Virus genome (UHGV): UHGV-0176705 | From: a virus | Length of the DNA: 30,191 bases | Strand: one strand, 5' to 3' | Shown: piece by piece, positions 11,910-12,760 of the stretch | How the letters are laid out: every line of letters begins with the position of its first letter | How positions within the stretch are numbered: the first letter of the stretch is position 1 | Translations under genes and position numbers: made by a program | Notes under the pieces: generated by a model | Told to the model about the DNA's origin: nothing | Databases searched by the model: none | Seen by the model: only the letters and a program-made list of their open reading frames with translations

Positions 11910-12275
11910 TTATTGCGCTAGTTCTTTTTCGGCAGCAGCTTTTGCATATTCACATGCAAAATTCAGAATTTCGCTACCGAGTGTTTTTATTTCGTTATTA
12001 CTGGACATATGTAATACCTGTGTTGCATGCAATAAATGATAAACATTTACCGCAAATGAGTCCGGCTCCAGACAAATGCCTTCATAATCATCTTGCTGTG
12101 AGGTTGTTTCTGTCATTGCTCCTGAAGTGCATGCGAGCCTGTTTTTGACAATTCTCTTTCCTCTAATCACTATATCGGCTACATCTATTGCCTTTACAAC
12201 CTCCGGGAGAAATTCCTGGTTTGTATAATCAAAGTTATCAACATGGAGAACAGTTATGTTTTCGAACTTTTTCAT
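11910..12275 (-). CDS. Hypothetical protein (121 aa), translationally coupled to the upstream HTH gene
   Basis: ATG at 12275 overlaps the stop of the HTH gene in an ATGA arrangement; no recognisable motif. Confidence 0.45.
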   Translation of the reverse strand: MKKFENITVLHVDNFDYTNQEFLPEVVKAIDVADIVIRGKRIVKNRLACTSGAMTETTSQQDDYEGICLEPDSFAVNVYHLLHATQVLHMSSNNEIKTLGSEILNFACEYAKAAAEKELAQ

Positions 12276-12691
12276 GCGCAAGTATCTCCAGCTGTTGGTT
12301 TACCGGTTAACAGCCACATCGGGTCGCAACCAAGAACATTTGCCAGTGGGATAAGCATACTGATAGTTGGTTCATACTCTCCGCTTTCCCACTGGATGAT
12401 GATTTCTTCATCGAGATCGAGCAGCCTGGCGAGTTCGGCGGTTGTTAAGCCGCAGGCTTCGCGTTGGGTGCGAATCCGATTCTGTGAATTAATGGCTAAA
12501 TTTTGTTTGCATGAACGCGACGCGGTGAGGCTATATTTTTGAGTTACAGCCAGGATGGAGCTGGCAAGTTCAATTAACTCAGGGTTATTGCTGCTATACA
12601 GTAGTGCTCCAGCCCCTACTAAGAGTTGAATATTCTCAAGAGCATCGTGTTGATTTGTTGGTAACCCCATATACGATGACATTTTCCTCAT
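12272..12691 (-). CDS. HTH (XRE-family) domain protein with N-terminal extension
   Basis: C-terminal helix-turn-helix QNRIRTQREACGLTTAELARLLDLDEEIIIQWESGEYEPTISMLIPLANVLG; sits downstream of the cI terminator with its own promoter. Confidence 0.6.
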   Translation of the reverse strand: MRKMSSYMGLPTNQHDALENIQLLVGAGALLYSSNNPELIELASSILAVTQKYSLTASRSCKQNLAINSQNRIRTQREACGLTTAELARLLDLDEEIIIQWESGEYEPTISMLIPLANVLGCDPMWLLTGKPTAGDTCA

Positions 12692-12731
12692 CCTCTATAA
12701 TTGTTTTGGTGAGTTCGATACTTATGTCATG

Positions 12732-12760
12732 ATAATAGGTTTACCTATTCATGTTGTCAA
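12732..12760 (-). promoter_or_regulatory. Sigma70-type promoter for the HTH gene, with an operator-like inverted repeat in the spacer
   Basis: Minus strand reads TTGACA (12760-12755), 17-nt spacer, TATTAT (12737-12732). The inverted repeat AATAGGT-tt-ACCTATT (12734-12749) overlaps the -10 and spacer. Confidence 0.45.

Follow-up and report, generated by a model that had tools for sequence, protein, structure and literature searches.

SinR of Bacillus subtilis combines an XRE-type helix-turn-helix (HTH) domain with a two-helix hairpin for oligomerisation, and the small hairpin paralogue SinI forms a mixed complex with it that blocks the regulator. In phage lambda, N is the first gene behind the early-left promoter PL, while the rexAB genes are co-transcribed with cI from PRM, lie upstream of the immunity terminator and are expressed in the lysogen. 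Here, these systems are compared with two adjacent genes of the UHGV virus genome UHGV-0176705, the complete 30,191 nucleotides (nt) of which are referred to as the window. The window contains an Escherichia coli prophage whose early region resembles that of the Stx2e phage phiP27. The two genes are located next to the repressor gene cI on the same strand and encode an HTH protein, with an open reading frame (ORF) of 139 amino acids (aa), and a second protein of 121 aa (Table 1). We tentatively favour the view, held with slightly less than even confidence, that both genes form the head of the early-left operon of the prophage and constitute a regulatory pair with a shared hairpin, not an accessory module expressed in the lysogen.

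The phage regulator AimC is antagonised by AimX, a small mimic of its oligomerisation domain (10.1101/2025.11.23.689978). A different arrangement is found in Vibrio and Aeromonas phages, in which a transcription factor (TF), often of the XRE type, and a small protein encoded near the immunity region control the lysis-lysogeny switch (Silpe et al. 2023, PMC10432266). In these TF-smORF modules the small ORF (smORF) is counter-oriented and activated by the TF, and its product inactivates cI and has no domain in common with the TF (PMC10432266). In contrast, the two genes studied here are co-oriented and their products share a domain.

With SinR/SinI and AimC/AimX, the locus has in common an XRE-type HTH regulator carrying a two-helix hairpin and an adjacent gene for a small hairpin paralogue. 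However, the hairpin, designated X, lies N-terminal to the HTH domain, whereas it is C-terminal in SinR, and the small partner carries an additional module, designated the N module. Moreover, homology of X to the oligomerisation domains of SinI or SinR was not detected at the sequence level, the partners do not co-vary, the HTH domain is acidic, and the regulator appears to be an early gene controlled by cI and not the master repressor. By analogy, the pair may be regarded as a counterpart of SinR/SinI, but not as a member of that system.

Promoter and proposed operators behind the cI terminator

The intrinsic terminator of the cI transcript consists of an 8-bp stem (5 GC), a 3-nt loop and a T9 run, for which an RNA folding energy of -12.6 kcal/mol was calculated (z = -2.5). 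Situated 27 bases past this terminator is a sigma-70 promoter, which represents the sole match to TTGACA-N17-TATAAT with at most one mismatch in the window (expected 0.22). Between this promoter and int, neither a further leftward promoter-like site nor a minus-strand terminator was found, and the 198-nt spacer 3' of the 121-aa gene is devoid of significant structure or a terminator. Likewise, an Rfam search of positions 7400-14400 revealed neither a nut-like element nor any Rfam match. Two dyads, 25 bp apart from centre to centre, are located at the promoter (Table 1). A 23-nt repeat of 78% identity, which includes the first of these dyads (12735-12748), links this promoter to the cro promoter region, and both regions have the exact 10-mer AATAGGTAAA in common.

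Comparison with seven heteroimmune relatives (phiP27, phi467, the Stx2a phage Stx2a_14040 and the loci L032, L035, L091 and L092) revealed different motifs at the equivalent promoter, each of which matches the cI-cro region of its own locus. These motifs are CCAAAGTATCA in phiP27, AAATCAAGTAAAA in phi467, AAAATCAAGTT in Stx2a_14040, TAATAGCAA/ATAGAAC in L032, TTAGCA-N4-TGCTA in L035, CCTACAT..ATGTAGG in L091 and ATAGC-N4-GCTAT in L092. The HTH domain of the encoded protein, on the other hand, is ~95-100% identical within E. coli across the heteroimmune relatives. Since the promoter motifs change along with the repressor and the HTH domain remains constant, the operators appear to follow the repressor and not the HTH protein, and the promoter is likely to be under the control of cI. 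For the same reason, as far as can be judged from sequence, it most likely represents the early-left promoter, an analogue of PL that would be switched off in the lysogen. The lack of a further leftward promoter-like site or terminator up to int is in keeping with such a role.

Measured against the lambda layout, the two genes occupy the position equivalent to N and not that equivalent to rexAB. As in the PL-OL-N region of lambda, a strong leftward promoter follows the repressor terminator, operators of the OR type lie over it, and the region is swapped together with the immunity cassette. However, the first gene encodes an XRE fold instead of the N antiterminator, and only two operator-like dyads are present. 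With rexAB, the genes share their location on the promoter-distal side of cI and on the same strand, but they lie past the terminator behind an operator-bearing promoter, display no homology to rexAB and do not encode a membrane protein, whereas RexB is polytopic.

An earlier note on this DNA had described the terminator, the near-consensus promoter, the 139-aa ORF with its C-terminal XRE-type HTH domain and the ATGA overlap between the stop codon of the first and the start codon of the second gene. All four are present in the window, although the start of the ORF has to be corrected and the overlap is not a fixed feature of related loci (see below). The rexAB-equivalent position that the note had assigned to the pair has to be given up, since the genes are separated from cI by its terminator and have a promoter of their own, a location that corresponds to that of the first PL gene. 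Expression in the lysogen, as proposed there, is unlikely for a promoter with cro-type dyads that change with the repressor.

According to the reading favoured here, cI would occlude the PL analogue in the lysogen via the two dyad operators. Upon induction or infection the promoter would fire, and transcription could extend leftwards over the following genes in the direction of xis and int. The first gene would provide an XRE-fold regulator, of which X belongs to the exchangeable immunity cassette while the HTH domain is common to many heteroimmune phages; the second would provide a non-DNA-binding protein composed of the small N module and the paralogous X hairpin. By means of the shared hairpin, the second protein might act on the first, or on a partner of the first, either by forming mixed oligomers or by competing for one binding site, as SinI acts on SinR and AimX on AimC. 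The outcome could be a tuning of early gene expression and of the lysis-lysogeny or excision programme.

Loci of the phi467-type immunity group carry a long inverted repeat (CACCATCAATTT ... AAATTGATGGTG) in the leader that extends from the PL-like promoter to the HTH gene (L004, phi467, at ~2886-2945; L007 at ~3915-3975). This repeat, which is absent from the window, possibly forms a leader hairpin or represents extra operators.

The X hairpin and the architecture of the two proteins

The start codon of the HTH gene is most likely the second ATG, at position 12682, which gives a protein of 136 aa, because a GAGGA Shine-Dalgarno sequence is well spaced to this codon and both the homologues and the RefSeq protein begin with MSSYMG. 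In the AlphaFold 2 (AF2) model of the protein (predicted local distance difference test score, pLDDT, 81), a helical hairpin formed by helices 14-32 and 37-~62 (pLDDT ~90) is followed by a five-helix XRE domain. The nearest solved structure to the HTH domain is P22 C2, with a template modelling score of 0.89 normalised to the target. Foldseek matched the model to the DNA-binding domains of P22 C2, 434 and SinR with scores of 0.8-0.9 in the same normalisation, and the SinR-SinI complex (1b0n) is among the structural neighbours. A sequence search of the PDB returned HTH domains only. In PHROG, the protein falls into phrog_4836, which is labelled 'CII-like regulator'. No transmembrane segment is predicted, the maximum Kyte-Doolittle hydropathy over 19 residues being 1.47.

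Both proteins contain the X hairpin of ~55 aa, which precedes the HTH domain in the first protein and is joined to the N module in the second. The PHROG family phrog_4587 (66 aa) matches residues 57-121 of the 121-aa protein with E = 5e-29 and residues 3-59 of the HTH protein with E = 1.8e-7. By BLASTP, the two proteins are 35% identical over 34 aa, and hhalign aligned residues 64-116 of the 121-aa protein with residues 7-59 of the HTH protein at a probability of 94.8% (E = 5e-8). Moreover, a helical hairpin was predicted by AF2 at the position of X in both proteins. At E <= 1, no Pfam family covers the X domain of either protein, and membership of the SinI/SinR oligomerisation-domain family was not detected.

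In the AF2 model of the 121-aa protein (pLDDT 69), a disordered linker connects a small alpha/beta module to the helical hairpin, and a structure search with this model gave generic hairpin matches only. The protein belongs to phrog_5451 (E = 1.5e-81), has no match in Pfam, NCBIfam, PADLOC or the PDB sequences, and is predicted to lack a transmembrane segment (maximum 19-residue Kyte-Doolittle hydropathy 0.85). Its full 121-aa frame, including the N-terminal half, is kept in homologues of 46-79% identity, the ratio of nonsynonymous to synonymous substitution rates (dN/dS) amounts to ~0.4-0.46 for the N half compared with 0.1-0.3 for the C half, and the phiP27 gene L08 corresponds to the 121-aa gene with a GAGGA of its own. 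The complete 121-aa frame is accordingly genuine, and at protein level it is conserved down to 46-61% identity. RefSeq/PGAP lists a truncated version of 68 aa that starts at an internal Met (window 11910-12116; L002 12011-12217). Internal initiation at this residue, Met54, was rejected since it is replaced by Val or Ile in homologues.

In the E. coli genome MFDS1022581 (L007, 2511-2876), the 121-aa gene stops at codon 5 (MKKF*) and cI is split into two ORFs, which indicates that this prophage is probably decaying.

Among the 41 relatives obtained by profile search and the matches to a word index, the modules recur in a number of other combinations. In addition to N+X (121 aa), X alone (60-72 aa) and N alone (54-56 aa), these include the HTH-containing architectures X+HTH, X+HTH+HTH, N+HTH+HTH (P0163, P0167 and P0169) and X+HTH+partial N+HTH+HTH (P0179), as well as N followed by other helical tails. 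In the distant relative L091 (1983-4316), the array after cI is made up of genes for a 191-aa HTH protein, an N+HTH+HTH protein, an N+X-like protein (116 aa) and an X protein (66 aa); accordingly, modules of the X/N/HTH family can be stacked.

Linkage, immunity type and competing explanations

For the analysis of linkage, 91 loci were scanned with domain hidden Markov models (HMMs), comprising 80 loci from IMG/VR in addition to GenBank phages, E. coli genomes and metagenomic contigs. A gene bearing X follows the HTH gene in 90 of the 91 loci, and the lone exception is cut by the end of its contig. The second gene encodes N+X in ~68 loci and X only in ~22, and the order of cro, cI, HTH protein and N/X proteins is kept in distant relatives. 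The spacing between the two genes is variable: the ATGA overlap is present in 17 of the 91 loci, directly abutting X-only genes are found in 20, and spacers of 128, ~210 or ~575 nt, within a range of 128-577 nt, separate the genes elsewhere. In phiP27 (L001, 4575-5151), in L003, L006 and L007 and in ~23 IMG/VR loci, a cassette of ~575 nt lies precisely between the genes for the HTH protein and the 121-aa protein; in phiP27 it is bordered on both flanks by ATGAAAAA repeats. It comprises an unannotated 80-aa ORF (MKNCDAYHICLIGELL...), which is ATGA-coupled to the stop codon of the HTH gene, and a convergent ORF of 75-79 aa (MEDKMINEEQLEKEIS...), of which phiP27 L09 is a shorter call on the same strand. 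The shorter spacers (128 and 203-221 nt) represent remnants or variants with an 80-aa ORF on the opposite strand (MASSADMYVLLYSESQKCFHIE...).

Two HTH-plus-X modules are found ~10 kb apart on the 24-kb viral contig IMGVR_UViG_2681813321_000026 (L023, 3939-11325; L024, 13907-21293); this doubling may be due to a tandem or an assembly duplication.

In 75 loci, the type of the N-terminal X of the regulator corresponds one-to-one to the type of the repressor, and the similarity of the window to phiP27 breaks near position 12474, where the HTH domain begins. Both observations indicate that the regulator X travels with the immunity cassette (cro-OR-cI-terminator-PL/OL-X). Judging from the sequences, the conserved DNA encoding the HTH domain is the left recombination boundary of this cassette.

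Several points weigh against an early-left regulatory pair. Among the small proteins, the type of X is combined freely with that of the regulator, and each of the six type combinations is represented. The X identity between regulator and small protein amounts to 0.30 for cognate versus 0.295 for non-cognate combinations, and the small X of the window is 45% identical to regulators of the phi467/P0102 type versus 29% to its own partner. Such free assortment argues against a highly specific X-X pairing and agrees with promiscuous pairing or with a third partner shared by both. The HTH domain has an unusually acidic composition, with a net charge of -6 (compared to +2 for the N-domain of the window cI and +5 for P22 C2) and an isoelectric point of 4.25, and D-E-E opens its predicted recognition helix; DNA binding is therefore not assured and appears questionable, and the role of the HTH fold may lie in binding to proteins. 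As to a cis site for the invariant HTH domain, no 10-mer was found that is common to seven representative loci outside the HTH coding DNA. Furthermore, operator sharing across loci was assessed by an automated word test with wide windows and by reading individual loci, and the word test is supportive but weak (8-13 nt for cognate pairs; mean 8.6 and maximum 11 for non-cognate pairs). Finally, the degenerate motif ATMGRTTTRYCKAT has 3 sites in 30 kb, two at the promoter of the pair and one in the spacer of the cro promoter, and the count stays at 3 with one mismatch allowed (expected 0.29; reached by 0 of 100 shuffles). Since the motif was derived from the sites that it finds, these numbers describe a restriction to two control regions and not an independent discovery.

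The absence of co-variation between X subtypes, together with the variable cassettes between the genes and the occurrence of X and N modules as free-standing proteins, could also mean that the genes are mere neighbours in a mosaic early operon, with a hairpin due to common ancestry and domain shuffling and with proteins that act independently. However, adjacency is maintained in 90 of the 91 loci, over at least seven immunity types and distant relatives, and N or X has been fused repeatedly and independently to an HTH domain, so that we regard independent action as unlikely. Free assortment of X is better suited to a common host partner than to specific pairing, and such a partner features in a further explanation, in which the HTH protein is an activator of lysogeny establishment or integration and the small X proteins are decoys that shield it from a host protease or adaptor recognising X. 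Like lambda CII and CIII, the locus combines an early HTH regulator with a small early protein able to act by competition. This role is also in line with the 'CII-like' label in PHROG, with the rightward operon, which lacks a cII-like or YdaT-like gene after the YdaS-type cro, and with the presence of an SPFH/Band-7 (HflK/C-like) gene in the leftward operon. The label is, however, an annotation only, and neither sequence similarity to CII or CIII nor a structural match to CII was found in Pfam, PHROG, PDB or by Foldseek. Both genes belong to the left operon, a search for shared sites identified no target promoter, and the HTH domain, which is acidic, does not vary between phages whose immunity regions, the expected location of a PRE-type target, are different. 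A CII/CIII-like function is accordingly considered improbable.

The earlier note had interpreted the genes as a regulator plus effector or an antitoxin plus toxin. In this case, an antitoxin-toxin or exclusion/defence pair would be expressed in the lysogen from the rex position, and the HTH protein would autoregulate the promoter and neutralise the 121-aa effector. A strong promoter with a dyad, an XRE-type HTH gene in first and an ATGA-coupled small gene in second place, and the neighbourhood of cI, a known site of accessory genes, are features one would look for in such a module; antitoxin HTH models match as well, albeit weakly and at domain level only. However, the dyad matches the cI/cro operator and tracks the repressor instead of the invariant HTH domain, contrary to what autoregulation would predict, and the genes lie beyond the cI terminator and outside the cI transcript. 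The 121-aa protein displays no similarity to toxin, defence or Rex proteins in Pfam, NCBIfam, PADLOC or PDB and has no membrane segment, while PADLOC gives the HTH protein generic HTH matches only. Moreover, the supposed toxin shares a domain with the supposed antitoxin, and each of its modules also occurs in fusion with HTH domains. The ATGA coupling is missing in most loci, cassettes separate the genes, and one genome carries the stop at codon 5. Taken together, a toxin-antitoxin or defence function seems very unlikely indeed. What can be retained is the notion of a regulator plus partner, which is a fair description of two co-oriented, linked genes. The profile and structure searches that the note had suggested for both proteins yielded HTH matches and the shared hairpin, but no toxin, defence or Rex family; with homologues of the two proteins, too, the family searches gave nothing beyond generic HTH matches. 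Its statement that the 121-aa protein has no recognisable motif holds for the families of Pfam, NCBIfam and PADLOC; it does not hold for PHROG, where the protein is a member of phrog_5451, nor for the C-terminal half, a homologue of the N-terminal region of the first protein.

A bolder version of the favoured reading, which we consider decidedly unlikely, would give a large group of E. coli prophages, Stx2e and Stx2a phages among them, a genetic switch with a so far unrecognised third component, namely this pair. The pair would replace N at the head of the PL operon, with X contacting the cognate cI or Cro, an acidic HTH fold that may serve protein binding, and small X proteins acting in trans as dominant negatives. 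The one-to-one correspondence between regulator X and repressor would then arise because X contacts the cognate cI or Cro. Within this version, the freely assorting small X proteins may inhibit the X+HTH proteins of co-resident heteroimmune prophages, as could be suggested by the higher similarity of the window small X to regulators of another immunity type than to its own. If so, the modules would constitute a combinatorial system of competition between prophages.

Distribution and prophage surroundings

When 1.84 billion representative proteins were searched exhaustively with profiles, only 41 relatives were obtained, all with generic names. The studied DNA was matched in 311 of 5426 complete E. 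coli genomes, related regulators are present on hundreds to a thousand or more contigs, and the module occurs in both Stx2e and Stx2a phages. The X/N/HTH family is narrow in terms of representatives, yet common in E. coli, and is without a Pfam or NCBIfam model. No paper on these genes was found in the literature on phiP27, under the accession numbers or among SinI-like prophage proteins.

If the favoured reading is correct, many E. coli prophages, among them the Stx2e phage phiP27 and several Stx2a phages, open their early-left operon with a modular regulator-plus-mimic cassette and not with an N-type antiterminator. On induction, the proteins of this cassette would be among the earliest to be made, and they could set the timing of excision and the commitment to lysis, and hence the release of toxin. 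Moreover, the principle of SinI and AimX, a small mimic of the oligomerisation domain of a regulator, would extend to lambdoid phages of Gram-negative bacteria.

Table 1. Positions of the two genes, their control elements and neighbouring features in the window.
Feature	Position	Strand	Remark
Intrinsic terminator of cI transcript	12778-12805	-	stem 12805-12787, then T9
sigma-70 promoter TTGACA-17-TATTAT	12732-12760	-	11/12 consensus positions; proposed PL analogue
Perfect 14-bp dyad ATAGGTTTACCTAT	12735-12748		overlaps promoter spacer and -10; proposed OL1-type cI/Cro operator
Second dyad ATCGGTTTGTCGAT	12760-12773		abuts -35; proposed OL2-type operator
X+HTH protein gene	12272-12691	-	139-aa ORF
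X module of HTH protein	12503-12682	-	N-terminal helical hairpin; domain HMM scan
XRE-type HTH domain	12299-12484	-	Pfam HTH_3, aa 73-127, E = 8e-12
N+X protein gene	11910-12275	-	121 aa; ATG overlaps TGA of HTH gene (ATGA)
N module of 121-aa protein	12126-12275	-	~47 aa; domain HMM; beta-alpha-alpha-beta-beta in AF2 model
X module of 121-aa protein	11922-12092	-	helical hairpin; helices aa 74-89 and 94-120
cI-type repressor gene	12828-13520	-	230 aa; N-terminal HTH and Peptidase_S24
Candidate cro promoter TTGAAT-17-TAATAT	13589-13617	+	
Operator-type dyad ATCGATTTACCTAT	13595-13608		fills spacer of candidate cro promoter
YdaS-type cro	13640-13882	+	
BssS-family (biofilm regulator) gene	13967-14290	-	between cro and Rha gene
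Two unknown genes	between SPFH/Band-7 gene and the studied pair		212 and 62 aa
SPFH/Band-7 (HflK/C-like) protein gene	9756-10583	-	Pfam E = 1.8e-30
int	7566-8774	-	
Gram-negative porin gene, full-length	20253-21350	-	Porin_1 E = 1e-154; just past Q, opposite strand
DNA methyltransferase gene	22151-23230	+	after porin gene
tRNA-Arg(TCT)	23419-23495	+	after DNA methyltransferase gene

The product of cI matches Pfam Peptidase_S24 with E = 1.3e-17 and PHROG phrog_4 with E = 2e-54, and is labelled as a LexA family regulator in RefSeq. On the left side, the SPFH/Band-7 gene is part of the leftward operon of the studied pair; it is of interest since HflKC modulates FtsH in the lysis-lysogeny decision of lambda. 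To the right of cro, the BssS-family gene lies on the opposite strand and has a moron-like look. It is followed by Rha, Ash, the replication genes and Q (19677-20060). The late-promoter region, which is the site of stx2e in phiP27, harbours the porin gene, the DNA methyltransferase gene and tRNA-Arg(TCT) in the window, all of which are candidates for lysogenic-conversion cargo.

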